From a virus, in the UHGV virus genome UHGV-0188933: 18,246 bases of DNA; one strand, given 5' to 3'. Positions 2,764-18,246 of the stretch are shown here, one piece after another (position 1 is the stretch's first letter; every line of letters begins with the position of its first letter). The translations under genes and the position numbers were made by a program. The notes beneath the pieces are model-generated. The model had not been told where the DNA came from and made no database searches. It saw only the letters and a list, made by a program, of their open reading frames with translations.

Positions 2764-3053
2764 TGGCTAACCTACGCAAAGAAGCGCGCGGCAGAGAATG
2801 CCAGGTACGTATTTACGGCGTATGCAATGGCAACCCTGAAACTACAGTTCTGGCACATTACCGGATGGCTGGAATTTGCGGAACGGGAATGAAGCCTGAC
2901 GACCTGATCGGCGCATGGGCTTGTAGCGCGTGTCACGATGAAATCGACCGACGCACCCATAATCTCGACAACAAAGACGCCAGGCTTTACCACCTCGAAG
3001 GCGTGATCAGGACGCAGGCGATACTGCTGAAGGAGGGGAAGATTAAGTCATGA
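2763..3053 (+). CDS. ybcO: DUF1364 nin-region protein, YbcO-like (putative nuclease)
   Basis: MANLRKEARGRECQVRIYGVCNGNPETTVLAHYR...CSACHDEIDRRTH matches my recollection of E. coli DLP12 YbcO nearly residue for residue, including the Cys/His pattern. Confidence 0.75.
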   Translation: MANLRKEARGRECQVRIYGVCNGNPETTVLAHYRMAGICGTGMKPDDLIGAWACSACHDEIDRRTHNLDNKDARLYHLEGVIRTQAILLKEGKIKS

Positions 3054-6985: not shown

Positions 6986-7483
6986 ATGAAATCATTAACC
7001 CTCTTCAATCAACCAATTCGTATCGGTGAAGATGGCATGATCTGCCTCACTGATATGTGGAAAGCTAGTGGTAAAAGTGAATCTGAATCGCCTTACCACT
7101 ACCTGCGAAACAAGCAGACCAAAGAGTTCTTAGCCGAGCTGGAGAAAAACCACGAATCTGTGGTTTTTACTGAGCGCGGTGTACACGGTGGAACATATGG
7201 CGGGAAGTTTGTTGCTTACGATTATGCGGCTTGGTTAAACCCCGGGTTCAAGTACGCGGCCTATAAAGTCCTCGATGACTACTTCACCGGAGAACTTCAG
7301 CATCGCAACAGCTTAAGTGCGCAGCTCAACATGAAATGTCATGAGTTTGACCAGAAGAAAGACATGGCGAGCTTCTGCGGACAAGGGCTGGCAGCATGGC
7401 GCTATACGAAGCCAGTGTTGGTCGCTGAGATTAACTCCCTGGCTAACCAGCTGCAGATTACGATCCCCGGGCTTCCGGGATGA
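6986..7483 (+). CDS. KilA-N domain protein
   Basis: MICLTDMWKASGKSE...KEFLAELEKN...GVHGGTYGGKFVAYDYAAWLNPGFKYAAY matches the KilA-N pattern (TDxWKA, GGT, YAxWLxPxF). Confidence 0.7.
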   Translation: MKSLTLFNQPIRIGEDGMICLTDMWKASGKSESESPYHYLRNKQTKEFLAELEKNHESVVFTERGVHGGTYGGKFVAYDYAAWLNPGFKYAAYKVLDDYFTGELQHRNSLSAQLNMKCHEFDQKKDMASFCGQGLAAWRYTKPVLVAEINSLANQLQITIPGLPG

Positions 7484-7737
7484 GTGATCGTGTCATTGAA
7501 TGCGCCTCCAGAGCGGGGCGCGACTTCTCAGAGTTCATGAAAGGCGAGAAGGGCATGAGGGAAGCATTGGCCTCGGTGGATGAGTTTGGCGAGCAGCTGC
7601 GCCTCAACGGCTGTGTCAATCATCACTTTGTTAGCTACATGATGCGGAACTCGATCATGCAGGCATTCATGGACATGGCAAAAGCCGAGAGGAAAGAAGA
7701 GCGCCGGCGTAAGCGAGCGGAAGCAAAAGCGAAGTAG
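7480..7737 (+). CDS. hypothetical protein with basic Lys/Arg/Glu-rich C-terminal tail
   Basis: 85-aa ORF, ATGA-coupled to the KilA-N gene; no recognised domain. Confidence 0.4.
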   Translation: MSDRVIECASRAGRDFSEFMKGEKGMREALASVDEFGEQLRLNGCVNHHFVSYMMRNSIMQAFMDMAKAERKEERRRKRAEAKAK

Positions 7738-8089
7738 CCATTACAAAGCCCATCTACGGGTGGGCTTGATAATGAAACCGTGATTTACATCCCCACAATC
7801 CGGGTATGTAAAAGATAGTTCAGGCGAGAACAGATTTAACTAAATCTGTGCACCACCAGTTACGGCAGTACCACGAAGCAACCCAAGCCAGTAAGTGGGG
7901 AAATAACACTGGCAGCCACTGAAAGATGAACCTCCAGCCTTATGGCAAAAAAGATTCTTTGTGGTGGCGGGCTGATGGAAAGACATCGGTTATTGCAGAG
8001 GCCATTCAATGAGTGGTCTCGACAATGGCTTATACCCTGCACGGGATAACTTAACTGATATCCCTTTTAACGGATAAACGGAGCCAACA

Positions 8090-8245
8090 ATGGCAAAGCT
8101 CACCGACAAACAAGAGCTGTTTGCCCGTGAGTACCTGAAAGATTTAAACGCCACACAGGCAGCTATCAGGGCGGGTTGGGCAAAAGCTCAACAACATGCC
8201 GTATTACCGCGCGAAACAATACGCGCAGATGCTTGGCATCGATGA
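8090..8245 (+). pseudogene. terminase small subunit, N-terminal stub (51 codons)
   Basis: MAKLTDKQELFAREYLKDLNATQAAIRAGW... is the conserved N-terminal helix-turn-helix of Terminase_2-type small subunits; frame ends at 8243-8245 after diverging. SD ggag 8 nt upstream. Confidence 0.7.
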
Positions 8246-9833
8246 AAACACGCTGATGGCGATGCGGCGCGGCATGAATGGCTTTACCGCCGATTACCAG
8301 TCGATGCTGCAAAAGACAGGGTTCAACGCTGATAAAGCGGCTGTTCAGTCCAACAAATTCATGACGTCCATGCGCGGGCTTACGTCGCTGTTCGGCATCA
8401 TGCGGGACAAGATCGGCTCAAACCTCGCTGGTGGCCTGGCTGGTTCGCTGGACAGCCTGCGGCGGCGCATCCTCGACAATTTCCCGAAGATTGAAGAGAC
8501 GCTGACCAGAGTTATTAAAGGCGTGATCTGGCTTGCGAACGCATTCACGAGAATGGCGTGGCGGCTGATACAGGGCGCTGGCTCTGTCATCGACTGGTGG
8601 AAGCGTCTTGACGATGGCAGTAAAAATCTGCTGAAAATATTCGGTGCTCTACTGGTCGCATGGCGTCTGCTTAATTCTGCGTTCCTGAAATCCCCGATTG
8701 GAATTATCACCACACTGATTCTGGCGATCGGATTGCTGTACGACGATTACCAGACGTGGAAAGAGGGCGGTAAAAGCCTGATTGACTGGTCCAAATGGCA
8801 GCCAGAAATTGAGCAGGCAAAGAAGGTGTTCAAGTGGCTGCGCGATAAGTTTCTGGAGCTCAAGGACAACCTCGGCGGCTGGAAAAATACGCTCACCATC
8901 CTGTTTGGCTTTCTGGCTGGTGCGAAGCTGGTCTCCATGCTCACTGGCATCGGGCGACTTGTCGCCGGATTTATGGGGCTTGGTAAGGCAATTGGCGGCT
9001 CTATTGGTGGGCTGGGTAAGCTGGCGCAGGGGATCGCACAGCTGGCAATCAAGAATCCATGGTTGCTTATGTTCATTCCTGCCAACAATACGCCGACCAC
9101 CAGTGAAGAAATGGCGTCGATTGGCGGTATAGGCAGCAATATCGTACCTGAAAGGCAGCAGGCATATGAGGCGCTGAGAAAGGAAAATCCCGGCAAAGAC
9201 TTTTTCACTGATGAGCAAATCCAGCGAAAAATTCAGGAGATGGGACTGGAGCCGGAGCAGCGAGCGCAGTCGGTTAAGCGACCTCAGGCGACGGCCCAGG
9301 GCAAGGTATTGCTCGACTGGATGGGGCCAATGTTCAATAAACTGGAGTCGCTTTATCAGCTGCCAGCTGGCCTGTTGAAAAGCGTGGCGATCACCGAGTC
9401 GGGTGGTAACCAGTTCGCCATATCCGGCGCAGGCGCGAAAGGACTGTTTCAGTTTATGGATGGCACGGCGCGCGACATGGGCCTGCGTGGGAATGATGTA
9501 TTCGACCCGGAAAAGTCAGCTCAGGCAGCCGCTAAGTACCTCAGCCAGCTGTTGCGGCAGAACGGCGGAGACCTTAGCAAAGCACTGGCATCATATAACT
9601 GGGGGATCGGGAATGTTAAGCGTTATGGAATGGGGCTAATGCCGCAGGAAACGCGCAACTACATTCCGAAAGTGATGAGCAATATGCCCACCAGCGCCCC
9701 GGTGATTCAGCAGGAAACGAACATTAACATCCACGGCGTTTCCGATCCGCGCGAGGCTGCCCGTTTGACTGTTGACCGTCAAAAGGGCGTGAATTCACAG
9801 TTAACCCAGCAACTCCCCGCAGGACCGAGATAA
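8196..9833 (+). CDS. tail tape measure protein, C-terminal portion, with lytic transglycosylase (SLT) domain; N-terminal part absent
   Basis: Typical TMP low-complexity Gly/Ala/Leu segments (LAGGLAGSLDSL, GKAIGGSIGGLGKLAQGIAQ). C-terminal ITESGGNQFAISGAGAKGLFQFMDGTARDMGL...ASYNWG is an SLT signature. Frame opens only at 8148, just inside the terS stub. Confidence 0.75.
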   Translation: MPYYRAKQYAQMLGIDENTLMAMRRGMNGFTADYQSMLQKTGFNADKAAVQSNKFMTSMRGLTSLFGIMRDKIGSNLAGGLAGSLDSLRRRILDNFPKIEETLTRVIKGVIWLANAFTRMAWRLIQGAGSVIDWWKRLDDGSKNLLKIFGALLVAWRLLNSAFLKSPIGIITTLILAIGLLYDDYQTWKEGGKSLIDWSKWQPEIEQAKKVFKWLRDKFLELKDNLGGWKNTLTILFGFLAGAKLVSMLTGIGRLVAGFMGLGKAIGGSIGGLGKLAQGIAQLAIKNPWLLMFIPANNTPTTSEEMASIGGIGSNIVPERQQAYEALRKENPGKDFFTDEQIQRKIQEMGLEPEQRAQSVKRPQATAQGKVLLDWMGPMFNKLESLYQLPAGLLKSVAITESGGNQFAISGAGAKGLFQFMDGTARDMGLRGNDVFDPEKSAQAAAKYLSQLLRQNGGDLSKALASYNWGIGNVKRYGMGLMPQETRNYIPKVMSNMPTSAPVIQQETNINIHGVSDPREAARLTVDRQKGVNSQLTQQLPAGPR

Positions 9834-10435
9834 TGGATATTTTATCAGCGATTTTTCGCCAGCAATCCCGGCGAATTGGCCTGCTGATCCCCAGCGTGGT
9901 CGTTTCCGAAAAGCATTCTGATGCGCTCGAAATTACTGAGCACCCGGTGGAGAAGCCAACAACGAATAGCGCGTCGGGTTTCATCGCCGATCATGCGTAT
10001 AAGCGCCCCAGCGAAGTCACGATGGAATGCGGCTTCGCAGGTGGCGGTTCGTTGCTGGACTTCATTGATACATCGTCAATCGGCCTCAGCGCCGGACTTA
10101 GCCCGAAAGAGACCTATCAGCAACTACTGGATCTCCAGTCCTCTCGGGTGCCGTTCGATGTAGTGACCGGAAAGCGGGTTTACAGCAATATGCTGGTGCG
10201 AGCCATCGAGGTGACAACGGATAAAACCAGCGAGAACGTGCTGAACTGCACGCTTACCCTGCGTGAAGTGATCATGTCGCAGACGCAGAGCGTTAGCGTT
10301 GCAGATAAATCAGATATGCAGGATGGCGTCAGCACATCGGCGGTGCAGAATTCCGGGATGAAATCCACTACACCGCCAAACGAATCCTTGCTGAGCCAGC
10401 TGGGCGGAAGCGTTACATCAGCATTCGGGGGATGA
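9833..10435 (+). CDS. tail/baseplate assembly protein (family uncertain)
   Basis: 200-aa ORF translationally coupled to the TMP stop; position between TMP and hub. Confidence 0.4.
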   Translation: MDILSAIFRQQSRRIGLLIPSVVVSEKHSDALEITEHPVEKPTTNSASGFIADHAYKRPSEVTMECGFAGGGSLLDFIDTSSIGLSAGLSPKETYQQLLDLQSSRVPFDVVTGKRVYSNMLVRAIEVTTDKTSENVLNCTLTLREVIMSQTQSVSVADKSDMQDGVSTSAVQNSGMKSTTPPNESLLSQLGGSVTSAFGG

Positions 10436-10436
10436 T

Positions 10437-10742
10437 ATGCAGTTTAACGAAATACCGCTTTCTCCTGACAATCAGCAGTTCCGCGTTTTGCTGGGCAATA
10501 CCACGTATACACTCAGGATCATCTGACGTGATGCGGCTGGCTGGATTATGGACGTGATGGATAGCGGCGGTGCCGCGCTTCTCTCTGGCGTACCTCTACT
10601 GACCGGCGTAAACCTTTTACGACAATATCCACAGCTTGGCATTGATGGCGCGCTGGTGGTGGCGACCGATAAGGGCGCACCAGACGAGCCCACCAAAACC
10701 AACCTCGGCACATACAGCCACCTCATTTTCGTACAGGAGTAG
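10437..10742 (+). pseudogene. small tail protein interrupted by in-frame TGA at 10524-10526
   Basis: Single frame reads MQFNEIPLSPDNQQFRVLLGNTTYTLRII*RDAAGWIMDVMDSGGAALLSGVPLLTGVNLL...VQE, verified codon by codon; the TGA would be Trp with one G-to-A change. Confidence 0.5.
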
Positions 10743-10744
10743 AA

Positions 10745-11812
10745 ATGTCTCTTAACTGGATGCGCCATTTTGAGCTGCAACTGTTGGACCAGAACGGGCA
10801 GGGCGTTTCCCTGTCTGACTTTAAGGTCACGTTCCAGATCGAGTGGGCAGACACACGCTGGCCACGCGTGGCGAACGTGAAAATTTACAACCTTTCGACC
10901 GATACCACGAACAAGATACTGGGGCAGGAGTTTGCAAAAATTCGCATCATTGCCGGGTATGACGGTATTGCGCCGGATGTTGATGCGAGCCAGGTTGGTG
11001 TCGCCCGGGAGATTTCACCAGACCAGGTAGGGCAGGTGAACGGTCAGAACTACGGCCTGATATTTGACGGTGATATTCGCTTCACCGTCACCGGGAAGGA
11101 CAACATCACCGATTCCTGGGTGCTGATTCAGGCCATCAGTAACCACGAAGCGTTCCTCTACGCGACTACCATCACCACGCTTGCCGCTGGTTATACCGTT
11201 GCGGACCTGCACCGGGCGACTATGCAGGATTTCAACGCGTTCGGCGTGACGCAGGGCATTACCGGTGACTTTCCTGATACCGTGTTTCCTCGTGGCCGTG
11301 CGATTTATTCATCCACCCGTAACGTGATGGATAATATTGCTGCGCAGTGCAAAGCGACATGGCAGCTGGTGGATGGTCAGGTCCAGATGGTGCCGGAGGA
11401 TAAATATATTCACGAAGCCATTGTGTTGAATGCCGATACTGGCCTGATCGGTATGCCGCAACAAACGATGGGCGGCGGAGTAAACGTGCGGTGCCTGATA
11501 AACCCAAACATCCGTATTAATGGTCTTATCCAGCTCGATCAGGCTTCGGTGTACCGCGCCGCGCTCGGTAATAGCGAAATAGCACAGTCGCCCGGTCGCA
11601 TCACCGAAACAGAAGAGAACGGCAACCGCGTACTGACCGGCACAACGTCACAGGCTGCCAGCATTGCGACAGATGGCGTTTATATCGTCAAAGCTATCGA
11701 TTATACTGGTGACACCAGAGGTCAGGCGTGGTACATGGATTTGATGTGTTTTGCGCGTGGGGCTCGTGACCTGATTAGCCAGTCGACTATAGCTCGCTCA
11801 GGAGGAAATTAA
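10745..11812 (+). CDS. baseplate hub-like tail protein (Mu gp44 / P2 gpD position)
   Basis: 355-aa ORF immediately upstream of the spike/gp46/gpJ/gp48 module; assignment by synteny and size. Confidence 0.4.
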   Translation: MSLNWMRHFELQLLDQNGQGVSLSDFKVTFQIEWADTRWPRVANVKIYNLSTDTTNKILGQEFAKIRIIAGYDGIAPDVDASQVGVAREISPDQVGQVNGQNYGLIFDGDIRFTVTGKDNITDSWVLIQAISNHEAFLYATTITTLAAGYTVADLHRATMQDFNAFGVTQGITGDFPDTVFPRGRAIYSSTRNVMDNIAAQCKATWQLVDGQVQMVPEDKYIHEAIVLNADTGLIGMPQQTMGGGVNVRCLINPNIRINGLIQLDQASVYRAALGNSEIAQSPGRITETEENGNRVLTGTTSQAASIATDGVYIVKAIDYTGDTRGQAWYMDLMCFARGARDLISQSTIARSGGN

Positions 11813-12703
11813 GTGGGTACAAATAAGAACGGAATTCGATATAGCGCACTTTTTCTTTCCGGGTTGCTCTTATCCGGGGGCGCGAGTGCAGGCTTTAATT
11901 CCGCGCAGAACGCTGAGTACAAAAGACGTCCAGGATGGCAGCCGATAGTAATTTTATCGACAGATGATTGTCAGACATGGAAATCTAAAGGGAAGTCACT
12001 AATTGACTGGAGTGGCGAGATCTGTGGTCCTGACGGGTTGATTAAGGCAATCAATAAAAAGCCGGAGAATATACCAGCTTTTTATGCTGCATATCATGAG
12101 TACGGCACAGGTGGAGTTAGGGCTATCGATGTAAGAGATAATTCTCAGCTAAATTATCTCAATTTTGTAAATGATTTAGCTAAGAAACTTTCTTCTTCGG
12201 CTGTTGTATTAAAGATTTATGATGATTATATCATTGATAGAAAACCCATGGGGCTTGCAGAGGTTTCACGAGAAAATTTTGTAAAACAGCTAAATGAGTT
12301 ATCGCTGAAGCAACCTGCCATCTATCAAAAAATGAACGACGTAGCCAAGGCTGATTACGAGAAAAGTAGTAATGTTCACAGTAACGAAAAGCTTGGCGTG
12401 AATTACAAAACAGTCTGTGGTCCTTATACGATTGATCTGTCTTCTGCTGATGGTTGGGCCAGAATTAATGGCGCAAAACCAGAGACGCAAAAAATTAGCC
12501 CAATCGGCTCTGGTGGTAGCACCAAAGGGGAACCGGATAACATCAAGATGGAGTGGATGGCTGCCACTAATCAACCCGGCCGCTGGGTTGGGCTTGAGTA
12601 CATCAAGCGCAACGGAAAAGCTATTCTCAACGCACAGTGGTTGCAGGCCAGCATAGACGCGCCGCGCCAGTATGCAACATACGACTGCCGAAAAGTAAAA
12701 TAG
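11813..12703 (+). CDS. cargo (moron) protein, 296 aa: signal-peptide-like N-terminus and a TMP-like motif; function unknown
   Basis: GTG start 7 nt after GGAGG. N-terminus MGTNKNGIRYSALFLSGLLLSGGASAG looks like a signal peptide. Residues DDCQTWKSKGKSLIDWS parallel DDYQTWKEGGKSLIDWS in the TMP. Remainder is visibly AT-rich relative to flanking tail genes. Confidence 0.55.
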   Translation: MGTNKNGIRYSALFLSGLLLSGGASAGFNSAQNAEYKRRPGWQPIVILSTDDCQTWKSKGKSLIDWSGEICGPDGLIKAINKKPENIPAFYAAYHEYGTGGVRAIDVRDNSQLNYLNFVNDLAKKLSSSAVVLKIYDDYIIDRKPMGLAEVSRENFVKQLNELSLKQPAIYQKMNDVAKADYEKSSNVHSNEKLGVNYKTVCGPYTIDLSSADGWARINGAKPETQKISPIGSGGSTKGEPDNIKMEWMAATNQPGRWVGLEYIKRNGKAILNAQWLQASIDAPRQYATYDCRKVK

Positions 12704-12721
12704 CCCGCCAGATAGGCGGGC
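12703..12721 (-). terminator. GC-rich hairpin between the convergent cargo genes (terminator for the minus-strand gene)
   Basis: gcccgcc-agata-ggcgggc, 7-bp stem; on the minus strand it is followed by a T-rich tract (ctattttacttttc). Confidence 0.55.
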
Positions 12722-12726
12722 ATGCG

Positions 12727-13017
12727 TCAAAAATATTGAGCTTTAATTATAATAAACACAATAATTACGAACAGGATGTTTCTAATTATTTTTTGCTTAT
12801 GAGTAAGTTGTTTTTTTTCTGTCGATTTCCCGGGAGAGTAAAGGTTAGTGGTATGCGACAGCCCCGTGCCGGGAAGGCCATTTGTCATCTTTACGCCTTT
12901 TTTCCCGATGTTAATGGTGGAACCTTTACCACCAATTGAAGTGCTTACTCCGCTTTTACTAATGTTGATCGCGAGTCCGGGCGCAATCCGGATTCTTTTA
13001 CGAAATCTAAATCCCAT
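12727..13017 (-). CDS. DUF4236-like small protein with C-terminal transmembrane helix
   Basis: MGFRFRKRIRIAPGLAINISKSGVSTSIGGKGSTINIGKKG...PGTGLS resembles what I recall of the DUF4236 N-terminal signature; C-terminus IIRNILFVIIVFIIIKAQYF is hydrophobic. AT-rich, convergent with the cargo gene. Confidence 0.55.
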   Translation of the reverse strand: MGFRFRKRIRIAPGLAINISKSGVSTSIGGKGSTINIGKKGVKMTNGLPGTGLSHTTNLYSPGKSTEKKQLTHKQKIIRNILFVIIVFIIIKAQYF

Positions 13018-13204
13018 TTGTTACTCCTGTAGTCAATAATGCGATGGTGCAGGTCCACTCTATGGCGGCTTCATGGCTGAAATTGATTTTCAATGCTTAC
13101 TTGTTGCAAACATATCCTAATACACATTGTGAATGTGTGCCATTGCAGCGGAAAAGCCTTACTTCACACTGATGTAGCTTAGTTACTAAGAGATAATTGA
13201 TACC

Positions 13205-13228
13205 AAACCAGCTTCGGCTGGTTTTTTT
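13205..13228 (+). terminator. strong intrinsic terminator 12 bp upstream of the spike gene start
   Basis: aaaccagc-ttcg-gctggttt, perfect 8-bp stem with tetraloop, then TTTT (7 T in a row counting the stem end). Confidence 0.7.
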
Positions 13229-13239
13229 ATGGGGGTTTT

Positions 13240-13980
13240 ATGCCAATTCCAACTCAATCACAGATCGGCGGTGAGCAGCAGACCGCGCAGGCCATTGCCG
13301 ATTCGGTGTCTACCCAGATGCGCGTAGCGATGCCCGGCATCATTCAGTCGTTCGATCCTGACACTGTTACCTGCACGGTAGAGGTAGCGCTTCGCGGTAT
13401 CGTTGGCGATGGCTCCACCGAATTAAAACCGCTGGTGGATGTGCCGGTTATCTTCCCGCGTGGCGGCGGTTGTACGCTGACTTTTCCGGTTAAAGAAGGC
13501 GACGAGTGCCTGCTGCTCTTTGCCGACCGTTGCATCGATTTCTGGTGGCAGAGCGGCGGCGTGCAGGAGACCGTCGACCCGCGCCAGCATGACTTATCTG
13601 ATGCGTTCGCCATCGTTGGCCCACAGTCGCAAGCACGGAAAATCAGCGGTATCAGTACCAGCGCCGCGCAGCTGCGAACCGATGATGGTGCGGCGTTTGT
13701 AGAAGTCGCCGCAGGACATAACATCACCATTAAAACACCGGGCCAGCTTACAGCTACGGCTGAAGGTGGAACGACAATCACATCCCCGACTATCACGCTG
13801 AACGGCAACGTAACGATTAATGGCAACTTGTCTCAGGGAATGGGCGAAAGCGGCGGTACTGCGACGATGCTTGGGCCGGTGACGGTAACGAATGACGTAA
13901 CAGCTTCTGGTATCAGTGTCGCCACGCATAAACATGGCGGAGTACAGACTGGCGGGGGAACTACCGGAGGGCCGCAATAA
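13240..13980 (+). CDS. baseplate spike / assembly protein V (Mu gp45, P2 gpV-like)
   Basis: N-terminal OB-fold-like region (GIIQSFDPDTVTCTVEV...PLVDVPVIFPRGGG...GDECLLLFADR) and Gly/Thr-rich beta-helical C-terminus (TITSPTITLNGNVTINGNL...). Confidence 0.8.
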   Translation: MPIPTQSQIGGEQQTAQAIADSVSTQMRVAMPGIIQSFDPDTVTCTVEVALRGIVGDGSTELKPLVDVPVIFPRGGGCTLTFPVKEGDECLLLFADRCIDFWWQSGGVQETVDPRQHDLSDAFAIVGPQSQARKISGISTSAAQLRTDDGAAFVEVAAGHNITIKTPGQLTATAEGGTTITSPTITLNGNVTINGNLSQGMGESGGTATMLGPVTVTNDVTASGISVATHKHGGVQTGGGTTGGPQ

Positions 13981-14333
13981 TGCGATACCGTCGCGAAGAT
14001 ACTGAAGGCGATTACACTTTCGGCCAGGGTGACGATACTTTCCTTATCGACAGTCCGGAATGTGTCGCCCAGGCCGTAAAAACCCGTTTCGAGCTGTGGC
14101 GCGGTCAGTGGTTTCTCGATCTGACGGAAGGCACGCCGTATGTTCAGTCAGTGCTTGGGAAGCAGCGATCAGATGTCTACATCCTGGCTATACGCGAACG
14201 CATACAGGATACACCGGGCGTTCTGTCGATTCTTTCCTTCGATACCAATTATGACGGCACCAGCCGTCGCGTCACCTTCACTTCCTCCATTGACACAATC
14301 TACGGCCAGACGACTGTAACAAGCGAGGCATAA
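13980..14333 (+). CDS. baseplate protein, Mu gp46 / gpW-like
   Basis: 117 aa, ATGA-coupled between spike and gpJ-like gene. Confidence 0.65.
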   Translation: MRYRREDTEGDYTFGQGDDTFLIDSPECVAQAVKTRFELWRGQWFLDLTEGTPYVQSVLGKQRSDVYILAIRERIQDTPGVLSILSFDTNYDGTSRRVTFTSSIDTIYGQTTVTSEA

Positions 14334-15533
14334 ATGGCTTTGAACCTCGACACGCTGGGGCTATCGGCAACGGTAACCGCCCAGGGGATTAGTGCGCCTG
14401 ATTACCAGACAATCCTAGATACACTGACCAGCTATTTCAGGCAGATTTACGGTAGTGATGCCTACCTCGAACCAGACAGCAAAGACGGGCAGATGGTCGC
14501 GCTGGTGGCTCTTGCCGTGCATGACGCTAACAACACCGCTATCGGGATCTACAACTCTTTTTCACCGACGACAGCGCAGGCCGCAGCGCTTAGCAGCAAT
14601 GTGAAAATTAACGGGATCACGCGAAAAGTAGCGACAAACTCTACTGCTGACCTTCTGTTAACCGGTACGGCAGGCACGACTATCACGAATGGCTCCGCAC
14701 GGGATAAAAACGGCATTATCTGGAATTTTCCCGCAAGTGTAGCGATCGGCGTTGATGGTACTGTGCTGGTGACGGCCACATGTGCGAATAGCGGTTCGGT
14801 TGCGGCGCTGGCCGGGACTATTACCACTATCAACACCCCGACCCGAGGTTGGGTGTCGGTAACCAATCCAGTTGCGGCTACTGTCGGTTCACCAGCCGAA
14901 ACCGACGCAGAGCTGCGCATTCGGCAGGGGCAAAGCGTCGCGCTACCATCGATCACACCGTTTGAAGGTGTCGACGGTGCTATCGCTAATGTTGCTGGCG
15001 TGACACGTCACAAACTATATAAGAACGATACTGGGGCAACCGACAGCAACGGGCTGCCGCCACACTCTATTTCCGCCATCGTCGATGGAGGGGATGTTAC
15101 CGAGATAGCCCAGACCATCAGGGGGAATAAAGGGCAGGGAACCGCAACTTACGGTAAAACTTCTGTCACAGTGCCGGATACTTATGGTAATCCTCACGTC
15201 ATCAGTTTTTCGCGCTCTACCGATGTGCCAATTTTCGTAGCCATTACCCTGAAAGTTTTTACCGGCTATACCTCTCAAATCGGCGAGCAGATTAAACAGG
15301 CTGTTGCCGATTATATAAATGGCCTAACAATTGGCGACGACGTTCTGCTGAGCCGTATTTATTCCCCGGCAAACCTCGGCGTTGTGAGCGGCGGGAATGC
15401 CCGCTATTACGATATTACCGACCTGCTGATCGGTAAGTCGTCTGGCAGCGTATCGGCATCAAACATTGATATTGCCTATGATGCTTCAGCGTCCTGTAGC
15501 ACCGCGAATATCAGTATCACGGTGACCTCATGA
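14334..15533 (+). CDS. baseplate J-like protein (Mu gp47 / P2 gpJ family)
   Basis: 399 aa; size and position between gp46-like and gp48-like genes. Confidence 0.7.
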   Translation: MALNLDTLGLSATVTAQGISAPDYQTILDTLTSYFRQIYGSDAYLEPDSKDGQMVALVALAVHDANNTAIGIYNSFSPTTAQAAALSSNVKINGITRKVATNSTADLLLTGTAGTTITNGSARDKNGIIWNFPASVAIGVDGTVLVTATCANSGSVAALAGTITTINTPTRGWVSVTNPVAATVGSPAETDAELRIRQGQSVALPSITPFEGVDGAIANVAGVTRHKLYKNDTGATDSNGLPPHSISAIVDGGDVTEIAQTIRGNKGQGTATYGKTSVTVPDTYGNPHVISFSRSTDVPIFVAITLKVFTGYTSQIGEQIKQAVADYINGLTIGDDVLLSRIYSPANLGVVSGGNARYYDITDLLIGKSSGSVSASNIDIAYDASASCSTANISITVTS

Positions 15534-16210
15534 GCAAATACACCGAACTGATCACTAACTACCACGCTACCAAGCCACTCTTTTTTGACCATATAGATCT
15601 GAGCACCTGCCCGCTGATTGATGTGTCCAGCACTATGTCAGGGCTTATAACAGCCTTCGATATCGATACTGCTGTCGGTGTACAGCTCGACATCCTCGGT
15701 CTGTGGATCGGACGCAGTCGCATAGTCAGCCAGCCAATTAGCGGAGTTTATTTCAGCTTGGACACTGACGGGCTTGGGTATGACCAGGGCATCTGGCAAG
15801 GGCCATATGATCCTGATTCTGGCTATACGACGCTAAGCGATGAGACGTACCGCATCATTCTGAAAGCGAAAATCGCTATCAACAACTGGGACGGTCGGAA
15901 CGACTCTCTGCCTCCCATCCTTGACGCTGCTACCGCAGGCTCAGGCCTGAGGATGCAGATCGTCGACAACCAGGACATGACGATTTCGGTCTGGGTTTTC
16001 CCTGAAACTGATATTTCTGATGTGTCTCTCGAACTGATCGCCGCTATCAAACAGGGCTATCTCACCGTTAAATCAGCTGGCGTATGGGCCGGTGATGTTG
16101 AAACGCCTTCGGTAGAAACACCGTCAGAAGGCTCTAAATTCTTTGGGTTTGATATGGATAACGAATACATCGGCGGGTTCGATGTTGGAGCATGGGGGAC
16201 AATACTCTAA
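15530..16210 (+). CDS. tail protein, Mu gp48 / YmfQ (DUF2313) family
   Basis: 226 aa, coupled upstream of the tail fibre gene, as in Mu-like and e14-like baseplate modules. Confidence 0.65.
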   Translation: MSKYTELITNYHATKPLFFDHIDLSTCPLIDVSSTMSGLITAFDIDTAVGVQLDILGLWIGRSRIVSQPISGVYFSLDTDGLGYDQGIWQGPYDPDSGYTTLSDETYRIILKAKIAINNWDGRNDSLPPILDAATAGSGLRMQIVDNQDMTISVWVFPETDISDVSLELIAAIKQGYLTVKSAGVWAGDVETPSVETPSEGSKFFGFDMDNEYIGGFDVGAWGTIL

Positions 16211-17076
16211 TGGCAATAAACAACTTTAAACCTTTCGCGCTTGATCCGAACGCTAACGTCACCTCACAAGCTGACTGGGAAGCACTTCCGGCTCTGCTTT
16301 CAGGGTTTACGGCAGGTAAAGCATCCAGCGCACAGGTCAACAAAGCTATTCGGCAAGCCAGCTTTATCGCGGCAGCGTTGGCGCAGTACACCGCCAACAA
16401 AAGCGGGCTGGATGTGCTTGATGATGGAGACCTGAACGGGTTTATATCCAAAATGGGGACCGCTTTCGGGAAAGATTTCCAGGCGCTTGATGCCACGCTG
16501 TCGGCATTAGCTGGGCTCGCAACAGGTGCAAATAAACTCCCATATTTCACTGGAAATGATACAGCAGCGCAGACTGATTTAACTTCTGTTGGCCGTGACA
16601 TTATTGGGAAAAATACTATTGCTGATATTCTCACATACCTTGGTTTGGGAGAAGGCTCAGCATTACCTGTTGGGGTGCCTGTTCCGTGGCCTTCAGCCAC
16701 TCCGCCAACAGGCTGGTTGAAATGCAATGGTGCGGCTTTTTCTGCTGAAGAATATCCGGAACTAGCAAAGGCTTATCCGACAAATAAATTGCCTGATTTA
16801 CGTGGTGAGTTTATTCGTGGCTGGGATGACGGGCGCGGTGTGGATAATGGCCGCGGTTTACTGTCTACTCAGAACGATGAGTTTAAATCCCACAGCCATA
16901 ACTTTGATCGCACATGGGGGTTAAGCGCCTTTGATCCTACTGGGGGCTATGACCTTGTTTCAGCAGATGCAAGCGGGAAAGTAGTAAATTTCGATACTCG
17001 ACCAACCGTCGAAGTGGGCGGCTCAGAAACCCGTCCGCGCAACATTGCATTCAACTACATTGTAAGGGCGGTATAA
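16210..17076 (+). CDS. short tail fibre protein with C-terminal phage tail collar domain
   Basis: C-terminal PVPWPSATPPTGWLKCNGAAFSAEEYPELAKAY...LPDLRGEFIRGWDDGRGVDNGRGLLSTQNDEFKSHSH is a tail-collar pattern. ATG 16210 overlaps the upstream TAA (track ORF begins at in-frame ATG 16192). Confidence 0.8.
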   Translation: MAINNFKPFALDPNANVTSQADWEALPALLSGFTAGKASSAQVNKAIRQASFIAAALAQYTANKSGLDVLDDGDLNGFISKMGTAFGKDFQALDATLSALAGLATGANKLPYFTGNDTAAQTDLTSVGRDIIGKNTIADILTYLGLGEGSALPVGVPVPWPSATPPTGWLKCNGAAFSAEEYPELAKAYPTNKLPDLRGEFIRGWDDGRGVDNGRGLLSTQNDEFKSHSHNFDRTWGLSAFDPTGGYDLVSADASGKVVNFDTRPTVEVGGSETRPRNIAFNYIVRAV

Positions 17077-17684
17077 TGACCACAAAAGAAATCAACCTGG
17101 ATGAAAACGGGTTCGCCACGGAATCTGGGGTTATCACTGTTTATAATTACGATGGCGTGACGCGTGAATATATCGGTTTATCTGTTGAATATCTTCCCGT
17201 TGGCGTTGGTGTTCCAGGCAATTCGTGCGTGGATGCGCCAATCAGCAAAAAGGACGGCTTTGCTGTTTGCCGGACGGCTGATTTGACCGGTTGGGAATAT
17301 GTTGCAGACCATCGCGGCGAAACCGTTTACAGCACGGAAACTGGAGAACCTGTGGCAGTTTCACAGTTGGGAGAATACCCGGAAGGAACCACCACCAAAG
17401 CACCTGATACGCCATACGACAAATGGGATGGCCAAAAATGGGTGACGGATGCCGATGCACAGCATAGTGCCGCACTAGACGCGGCAGAAGTAAAGCGCCA
17501 GTCACTGATTGATGCAGCAATGGCTTCCATTAGTCTGATTCAGCTGAAATTACGGGCCGGACGGAATCTGACGCAGGCAGAAACCGCCCGACTTAACGCT
17601 GCGCTGGATTACATTGACGCGGTGACGGCAACAGATACCAGCACCGCGCCGGATGTCATCTGGCCTGAACTGCCGGAGGCGTAG
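17076..17684 (+). CDS. tail fibre assembly chaperone (Tfa)
   Basis: 202 aa ending ...TATDTSTAPDVIWPELPEA, a typical Tfa C-terminus, directly downstream of the fibre gene. Confidence 0.8.
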   Translation: MTTKEINLDENGFATESGVITVYNYDGVTREYIGLSVEYLPVGVGVPGNSCVDAPISKKDGFAVCRTADLTGWEYVADHRGETVYSTETGEPVAVSQLGEYPEGTTTKAPDTPYDKWDGQKWVTDADAQHSAALDAAEVKRQSLIDAAMASISLIQLKLRAGRNLTQAETARLNAALDYIDAVTATDTSTAPDVIWPELPEA

Positions 17685-17739
17685 GCCATTCAATATCTGG
17701 CGCACCGGAAGTATCGACCAGCTCCAGTGCGTCCAGTTG
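17656..17739 (-). pseudogene. vestige of a second, oppositely oriented tail fibre assembly gene (C-terminal ~27 codons)
   Basis: Complement frame reads QLDALELVDTSGAPDIEWPTPPAVQAR*, parallel to the + strand Tfa end LDYIDAVTATDTSTAPDVIWPELPEA*. Frame has no Met and is closed at 17899-17901. Confidence 0.5.
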
Positions 17740-18112
17740 ACATCCTCCACGCCCTGAAGGACGGGGTTTTACGGCGCACCGGATAAATCCAAATGGAGTT
17801 TCGGGAGATAAATGAAACCGTAGCACGTCGTATGCAAGAACGTGCCACGGCTGGCTGGCGAACTTTCGATAGTGCGAGTATTGAATGATTTCCAGCCGTT
17901 ACCGATTTTACTATGTTTTCAGTAGAACGCTTAGACAAAACTTAGGCGCACAAAGCTTTGCACTGGATTGCAAGACTTTGTTCTATTCGATATGGGTTAA
18001 GGTGGATCACTCCACCTTTTCATCAAGCCAGTCCGCCCACCATTGCATCATTTCTCTGCGCTTATCGAGATACTGAGCATGGTTGTAAATTCAGCAAACG
18101 ACGTAATGTGTT

Positions 18113-18155
18113 TGACAAAAAATTAGCGCAAGAAGACAAAAAATCACCTTGCGCT
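18113..18155 (-). terminator. minus-strand terminator-like hairpin near the right edge
   Basis: agcgcaag / cttgcgct 8-bp stem (15-nt loop); on the minus strand it is followed by aattttttgtca. Confidence 0.4.
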
Positions 18156-18246
18156 AATGCTCTGTTACAGGTCACTAATACTATCTAAGTAGTTGATTCA
18201 TAGTGACTGGATATGTTGTGTTTTGTAGCATCATGTAGTCTATTTT

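Follow-up and report, generated by a model that had tools for sequence, protein, structure and literature searches.

The DNA that follows the tail-fibre gene in the window, as we call the whole stretch of 18,246 nucleotides analysed here, is very probably an inactive fossil of an invertible host-range segment of the Pin/Gin type. Of the features that make up a functional segment, the invertase, the pair of inverted crossover sites and the pair of tail-to-tail cassettes are all wanting. The first cassette, composed of the variable receptor-binding part of the fibre (Sv) and the assembly gene tfa, is intact; the second consists only of 26 codons of the alternate assembly gene tfa′, with no alternate fibre tip (Sv′). 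Having one crossover site, no enzyme and no second cassette, the segment cannot invert. Judging from the sequence, Sv and tfa appear to be permanently joined to the fibre gene, and the stub of tfa′ appears to serve no separate function. Both ends of the lost interval have left remnants, which are collinear with intact loci. The features discussed below are the following:

16192-17076, plus strand: tail-fibre gene (294 aa), Pfam Collar domain (E = 1.3e-15)
16628-16653, plus strand: orphan left crossover site of the former invertible segment, TTCTCACATACC TT GGTTTGGGAGAA
17076-17684, plus strand: intact tfa (202 aa), Pfam Caudo_TAP (E = 1.2e-30; 106.7 bits against a cutoff of 22.1)
17656-17736, minus strand: stub of tfa′, its last 26 codons and stop codon, with a 29-bp overlap with tfa
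17737-17787, no strand assigned: 51-bp tnpA-proximal end fragment of an IS200/IS605-family (IS609-type) element, core at 17746-17787
17788-17803, no strand assigned: 16-bp stretch loosely resembling the pinE codons for YKKFPV
17804-17815, plus strand: stub of the invertase gene pin, its last three codons (GDK) and stop codon, recognised by identity to the pinE end of the MINF_1D prophage
17816-17911, plus strand: DNA normally found 3′ of the invertase gene, contiguous with the pin stub as in intact loci
17912-18113, no strand assigned: 202-bp spacer with no evident gene (alignment and Pfam search of ORFs)
18114-18246, no strand assigned: lambda-type sib/tI hairpin (~18115-18165) and P arm of attP, part of attR

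Intact loci used for comparison

Comparators were provided by three phages, namely a P2-like phage (L003), vB_EcoM-606R2 (L004) and Citrobacter phage Omnitron (L023), and by three E. coli prophages, those of ECONIH5 (L005), VREC0864 (L006) and MINF_1D (L010). In these loci, the fibre gene is followed by tfa, then on the opposite strand by tfa′ and a short fibre tip, and finally by the invertase gene. According to Pfam, the invertases carry the Resolvase and HTH_7 domains, the tfa′ products fall into Caudo_TAP and the alternate tips into Gp53-like_C. A 29-bp overlap of tfa and tfa′ is seen in every intact locus. An earlier note on this DNA had likened its tail-to-tail layout to that of the Mu G and e14 P segments, and the intact Pin-type comparators indeed show the same arrangement with the same overlap.

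The relationship to some of these loci reaches beyond the segment. vB_EcoM-606R2, ECONIH5, VREC0864 and Omnitron have the baseplate module of the window (a 399-aa baseplate J protein and a 226-aa wedge protein), and Omnitron, a 41.9-kb circular phage record, possesses the tail module of the window together with a complete segment. The VREC0864 prophage is located at the lambda attachment site beside ybhB-bioA, like the window prophage. It should be mentioned that two of these ‘intact’ comparators are themselves in decay: the recombinase gene of ECONIH5 is frameshifted (L005, 6084-6646), and VREC0864, whose invertase is whole, has disruptions in the expressed fibre gene and in the 5′ part of tfa (L006, 3711-4802).

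In the Mu G/Gin and P1 C/Cin systems, the constant part of the fibre gene is followed by a crossover site lying within the gene, by Sv and by an assembly gene; the order continues with the inverted second assembly gene and Sv′, a second site and the gene for the serine invertase. Both the logic and the gene order match the layout of the window. However, the Mu G and P1 C segments are complete and switch host range, whereas the window holds a one-sided remnant that is unable to switch. The e14 P/pinE-type locus of MINF_1D has crossover sites of the same family as the window (its second site is TTCTCCCAAACCAACGTTTATGAAAA), as well as the same tail-to-tail pair of tfa and tfa′ overlapping by 29 bp, and the end of its pinE with the DNA that follows is 100% identical to window 17804-17857.

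Fibre gene, tfa and the orphan crossover site

The constant part of the fibre gene ends at the crossover site, and the variable part, Sv, occupies 16654-17076. The product of the intact tfa passes the curated threshold of Caudo_TAP (PF02413) and is a member of this family; at least 24 public contigs encode exactly this Tfa protein. For the fibre protein, a look-up of the same kind returned no match, owing to a different start-codon call.

A search for crossover sites inside the fibre gene, proposed in the earlier note, was rewarded with one site at 16628-16653, the sole one in the window. Scanning with the consensus TTCTCNNAAACCNNGGTTTNNGAGAA at up to three mismatches gave a single window match, TTCTCACATACCTTGGTTTGGGAGAA, with one mismatch, and the pattern was found in 0 of 200 shuffled sequences. 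All five invertase-bearing loci scanned (L003-L006 and L010) have two crossover sites in inverted orientation, the first within the fibre gene, the second separating the alternate tip from the invertase gene. Each of the six scar-bearing loci scanned (the window, HK97, HK106, L009, L011 and L013) has one. The window site shows a 27-bp match, at 96% identity, to the invertase-adjacent site of the P2-like phage. When six fibre genes from four tail backgrounds were aligned, they were dissimilar to the left of ~16640 and highly similar from the centre of the site rightward; since the similarity starts at the site centre, the crossover site is the boundary between the constant and variable parts of the fibre. 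A candidate for a hidden second site in 17780-17810, where a 9/12 half-site can be made out by eye, was rejected, as it fails the pattern scan and its bases belong to the IS end and the pin stub.

The stub of tfa′

The earlier note had placed some 27 codons of a second Tfa on the minus strand, overlapping the 3′ end of tfa, and had regarded the alternate gene as reduced to this C-terminal piece; both points hold. The minus strand of 17736-17659 translates as LDALELVDTSGAPDIEWPTPPAVQAR, 26 codons that are followed by a stop codon at 17658-17656, and the homology of the window to the six complete-segment loci ends exactly at 17736. In a tblastn comparison, residues 121-146 of the full-length tfa′ product of ECONIH5 matched the window with 26/26 identity (E = 4e-13). 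Comparison with the Tfa families, another check that had been suggested, aligned the stub with the C-terminal end of the Pfam Caudo_TAP profile (positions 111-131 of 131, E = 5e-4). The score of 20.7 bits is just below the cutoff of 22.1 because the piece is very short, and the stub is a fragment rather than a Caudo_TAP member gene.

The overlap of the stub with tfa amounts to 29 bp (17656-17684). The other 52 of its 81 bp lie past the plus-strand tfa stop, so the stub is not a mirror image of tfa. At the DNA level, the 87 bp of 17650-17736 are 93-100% identical to the tfa/tfa′ junctions of many P2-like and other phages. In two loci (L009 and L025), PGAP labels the same 81 bp as ‘tail fiber assembly protein, incomplete, missing N-terminus’, i.e., as a pseudogene.

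The minus-strand ORF in which the stub lies extends over 17656-17826 (56 codons), its upstream 30 codons being read from the IS fragment. Automatic callers report this ORF as a gene of 58-78 aa (L017, 10581-10817; L018, 10581-10757). The called ORF of 56-78 codons is an artefact, produced by the tfa′ stub running on into the IS fragment. A further degenerate tfa relic in another frame (...KLHLDLSGAP*) was also considered and rejected, its bases being those of the IS end.

The deletion and the contents of the junction

Compared with intact loci, the window lacks ~1.35-1.4 kb of DNA (1,347 bp on MINF_1D, 1,392 bp on ECONIH5 and 1,410 bp on VREC0864). The alternate fibre tip Sv′ and the right crossover site have gone completely, as have tfa′ upstream of the stub and pin except for its very end; where MINF_1D has its ~1,347 bp, with most of tfa′, Sv′, the second site and pinE, the window has the IS-end fragment instead. 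The 67 bp that separate the stubs of tfa′ and pin have no counterpart within intact segments, and a short-word BLAST of 17737-17813 against the six loci revealed nothing beyond chance.

Most of these 67 bp belong to the IS fragment. The tnpA-proximal terminal ~42 bp of IS609-type elements match 17746-17787 at 95-98%; the 9 bp of 17737-17745 differ from the full-length copies examined, and the window has no tnpA, no tnpB and no other end. What the window holds is ~42-51 bp of one end of an IS200/IS605 element, short of the definition of a complete one. The terminus lies at ~17786/17787, with the copies diverging in the alignment directly after GGATAA, and the body of the IS would be leftward. 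The core at 17746-17787 is present in 5,014 of 5,426 E. coli genomes, at a median of 3 places per genome, and in three loci (L007, L019 and L020) it sits 20-27 bp beyond tnpA of an element that encodes TnpA and InsQ/TnpB. One of these three full IS loci comes from a K-12 derivative and adjoins ydcL; we take it to be the K-12 copy of IS609.

The same 51-bp IS-end fragment, with the same inner boundary (TTGACATCC...), was found in E. coli O145 RM8843-C1 (L008, 2501-2551). There, it is part of an Stx1 prophage, in the interval that separates the gene of the Q antiterminator from stx1, and stxA1 begins ~40 bp downstream of it. Since the same boundaries recur upstream of stx1, the 51-bp piece may be a discrete mobile or recombinogenic unit, although we hold this reading to be weaker than that of recombination in trans, which is considered below.

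To the right of the IS terminus, the 16 bp of 17788-17803 are possibly a degenerate part of the pin 3′ end. From 17804 onward the origin of the DNA is clear: 17804-17857 is 100% identical to positions 3001-3054 of L010 in BLAST, a pairwise alignment extends the identity to 17864, and pinE of this locus ends at 3012 with ...FPVGDK*. Pin-associated matches across E. coli genomes also start at 17804. Further on, 17814-17911 is 95% identical to a stretch of ECONIH5 and VREC0864 that starts 37-38 bp after the recombinase stop. The survival of the last 12 bp of pin and of its downstream flank (17804-17911) shows directly that an invertase gene was once present.

The hairpin-containing sequence after pin (17816-17870) is found in 4,300 of the 5,426 E. 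coli genomes, at a median of 2 places each, and a copy with 88% identity is located in the b region of lambda (24169-24265), between ea47 and ea31. This sequence is a widespread prophage spacer, and a role of the hairpin as an RNA structure or a terminator was rejected (fold z = -0.7). On the plus strand, Rfam weakly matches 17786-17849 to CssrB, an sRNA of the Shigella chromosome (E = 2e-4; 32 bits, the gathering score being 76); the matched interval runs from the IS terminus across the pin stub and takes in the hairpin that follows pin. The match is probably due to homologous prophage DNA among the seed sequences of the family and not to an sRNA gene in the window.

A scenario for the loss of the switch

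In the ancestral state, a serine invertase would have flipped a ~1.9-kb segment bounded by 26-bp crossover sites in inverted orientation, located within the fibre gene at one end and beside the invertase gene at the other. Inversion would have joined the constant part of the fibre alternately to Sv and tfa or to Sv′ and tfa′. A single deletion of ~1.35-1.4 kb would then have removed Sv′ and the right site entirely, together with ~120 codons from the start of tfa′ and the whole of pin except for its last three codons. In known systems of this kind, a Fis-dependent enhancer lies in the 5′ part of the invertase gene, and by analogy it was presumably lost together with the 5′ part of pin.

With regard to the IS fragment, the likeliest history is that an IS609-type element inserted near the 3′ end of pin, its tnpA-proximal terminus facing the pin stub, and that a later deletion, with one end inside the IS at 51 bp from the terminus and the other in tfa′, removed the interval. 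We would give this order of events, read from the layout of the junction, about an even chance of being correct. The inner endpoint of the fragment at 17737 is not an IS terminus, so a classical adjacent deletion made by the transposase does not fit. A full IS609-type element abutting the pin stub was found in none of 5,426 complete E. coli genomes (296-nt chimeric query, at least 80% coverage). The 51-bp piece upstream of stx1 in O145 also counts against an insertion followed by deletion, as it makes another route of arrival possible.

Right end of the prophage

The earlier note had found no convincing ORF and no invertase gene in the ~400 bp that follow the stub. This stands, but the stretch is far from featureless, being made up of the IS end, the pin stub, the pin flank, the spacer and the sib/attP arm. 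A tblastn search with two Pin-type invertases and two alternate tips gave no match at E < 0.2 in the whole 18.2-kb window, with none for the two invertases at E < 1 either, and the local ORFs of 17737-18112 had no Pfam match below E = 0.03.

The spacer at 17912-18113 is absent from HK97, ECONIH5 and VREC0864 and partly common to HK106, Stx phages (17823-18067), lambda and the DNA left of attP in phage 434. It contains a terminator-like hairpin on the minus strand (17963-17946) and a AAGGTGGA...TCCACCTT hairpin at ~18001-18020. Beyond the spacer, 18114-18246 is 97.7% identical to HK97, whose record annotates sib and the att core; its identity to lambda is 94%; the att core sits 70-84 bp past the end of the window. 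Two contigs (L013 and L014) are 100% identical to window 7076-18246 (11,171 bp). Rightward, L013 continues into the att core GCTTTTTTATACTAA and the bacterial arm CTTGAGCG, and then into ybhB, bioA, bioB, bioF, bioC, bioD and uvrB. This continuation into the att core and bacterial genes shows the window to be the right-hand end of a prophage located at the lambda attachment site. The earlier note had left room for an intact invertase just to the right of the window; the continuation of L013 through attR into ybhB and bioA-D holds none.

Origin and spread of the scar

The same scar is carried by well-known phages. HK97 (AF069529) and HK106 (JQ086369) are 100% identical to the window over ~17603-17821; the stubs of tfa′ and pin, with the IS-end fragment between them, all fall within this interval, and the same sib/attP arm comes after it. 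The stf genes of HK97 and HK106 have a single crossover site each, and in both records the stub and the scar carry no annotation. HK97 and HK106 are viable siphoviruses, whereas the window belongs to a defective prophage with a myovirus-type baseplate. The scar is also present in L009, accompanied by a Mu-like baseplate and different downstream genes; in L011, where a Mu-like baseplate is combined with lambda-like genes for terminase and portal; in L025, a complete RefSeq genome with the same att site; and in three IMG/VR contigs, with other tfa alleles leftward and other DNA right of 17911. An exact scan of the viral collection for the scar junctions yielded four matches, all of them complete scars and one of them HK97, and an exact-pattern scan for both junctions over one genome per species yielded 0 matches for each. 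Every locus with one scar junction also has the other, and the DNA flanking the scar on either side differs among the carriers.

Starting at the second base of the crossover site and reaching the window end, 16629-18246 is 99.8% identical to L011 9554-11171; left of 16629, no match between L011 and the window was reported. The scar block is often accompanied by an Sv-tfa cassette on one side and by the lambda att region on the other. Overall, the block formed by Sv, tfa, the scar and attR moves among unrelated tail modules, with a breakpoint at the crossover site.

The simplest reading of this distribution is that the deletion occurred once and that the ~285-bp scar block then spread by recombination among phages and prophages with the lambda att site. 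The identical scar in HK97, HK106 and prophages with unrelated tails argues that the deletion did not take place in the window prophage, which inherited it ready-made. Hence, the claim of the earlier note that the host-range switch was lost by deletion is right as to the deletion itself but not as to its place, with the scar already found in HK97 and HK106. A search of lambda itself for an inverted tfa relic was negative, lambda 19000-28500 containing neither a minus-strand tfa′ match nor a crossover site.

Alternative explanations

The notion that the minus-strand similarity is a product of chance or a mirror-image effect of the plus-strand tfa has practically no probability left. It could appeal to the 29 bp of the stub that overlap tfa and to the similar peptides encoded by the C-termini of tfa and tfa′, which give short inverted repeats. 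However, 52 of the 81 bp lie past the tfa stop, and the overlap, which the earlier note had singled out as the possible undoing of its claim, cannot by itself account for the stub. The 26/26 amino acid identity (E = 4e-13) to a tfa′ protein and an identity of up to 87/87 nucleotides to real tfa/tfa′ junctions refute such an origin, and the 29-bp overlap belongs to every intact locus. It is likewise very improbable that the stub is retained for a function, be it as a small protein (the 56-codon ORF), an antisense element or a hairpin that ends the late operon. The scar block is perfectly conserved among its carriers, and the ORF is sometimes called by gene finders (L017 and L018); yet the flanking junk is equally identical, so the conservation reflects recent spread, and the upstream 30 codons of the ORF come from the IS fragment. 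Moreover, the RNA fold of 17620-17760 is unremarkable (z = -1.8, with 10 of 200 shuffles folding as well), the plus strand has no terminator-like site, a consensus scan gave no excess, and PGAP treats the stub as a pseudogene.

We regard as extremely improbable a switch that still works by means of an invertase encoded at some other place in the prophage or in a different prophage, even though the left crossover site is well preserved and Pin-family enzymes can act on the segments of other prophages (PMC12529663). Inversion requires two sites, of which one is present in 18.2 kb, and with Sv′ gone there is no alternative to switch to. By the known layout of such systems, the enhancer would have been inside the deleted invertase gene as well. 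As for the place of the deletion, it is unlikely that it arose in the own lineage of the window prophage, i.e., that a phage with this tail module lost its switch in place. Since complete segments are carried by relatives that share the baseplate and tail module (Omnitron, L004, L005 and L006), a complete ancestor is plausible. Nevertheless, the scar is base-for-base the same in HK97, HK106, L009, L011 and the IMG/VR contigs with other tfa alleles, the 99.8% identity of the window and L011 holds only from 16629 to the window end, and a single origin with lateral spread is far more economical than repeated identical deletions. It is tempting to suppose that the orphan crossover site at 16628-16653 is used by the Pin-family invertases of other prophages, which would exchange Sv-tfa cassettes at the central TT. 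Such an exchange would explain why the fibres of four unrelated modules are alike from the ACC-TT-GGTTT centre and why the identity of the window to L011 exists only rightward of 16629; still, we see a rather slim chance that it takes place.

Relation to previous knowledge

That fibre segments can be invertible and that they decay in prophages is textbook knowledge. As a sequence, the scar is already known, being public in HK97 (AF069529), and the stub is routinely flagged as a pseudogene; our literature search found no paper describing the scar in HK97. New in detail are the pin stub, the fragment of the IS end and the spread from a single origin. On its own, the finding is of little weight. 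For annotation, it is useful to recognise the 56-78-codon ORF in the scar as an artefact. For HK97-type phages, it means that the stf/tfa cassette descends from an invertible segment and retains one of its crossover sites. It also provides a clean worked example of mosaic spread, in which ~285 bp of dead DNA passes, along with the lambda att region, between phages whose tails are unrelated.

Programmed inversions are enriched for tail-fibre and assembly genes, among other families (PMC9881135). PinQ of the Qin prophage inverts the 1,797-bp P segment of e14, and Pin enzymes acting on the fibre segments of cryptic prophages can confer phage defence (PMC12529663). This report on defence makes it worthwhile to know which prophages retain a working switch; the window prophage does not.

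State of the prophage

The window prophage is defective. The earlier note had concluded that the loss of the switch fixed one fibre specificity, and the fibre is indeed locked as the constant part plus Sv, but in a defective prophage this is of no consequence. Between the lambdoid region of early and late regulation and lysis and the baseplate genes, the portal, capsid, sheath and tube genes are absent. At window 8090-9833, a 51-aa fragment of the small terminase abuts a 545-aa SLT-domain protein, which is a 5′-truncated copy of the 667-codon ORF of Omnitron (L023, 8578-10581). Upstream of this ORF, Omnitron has a run of ORFs that is missing from the window prophage.
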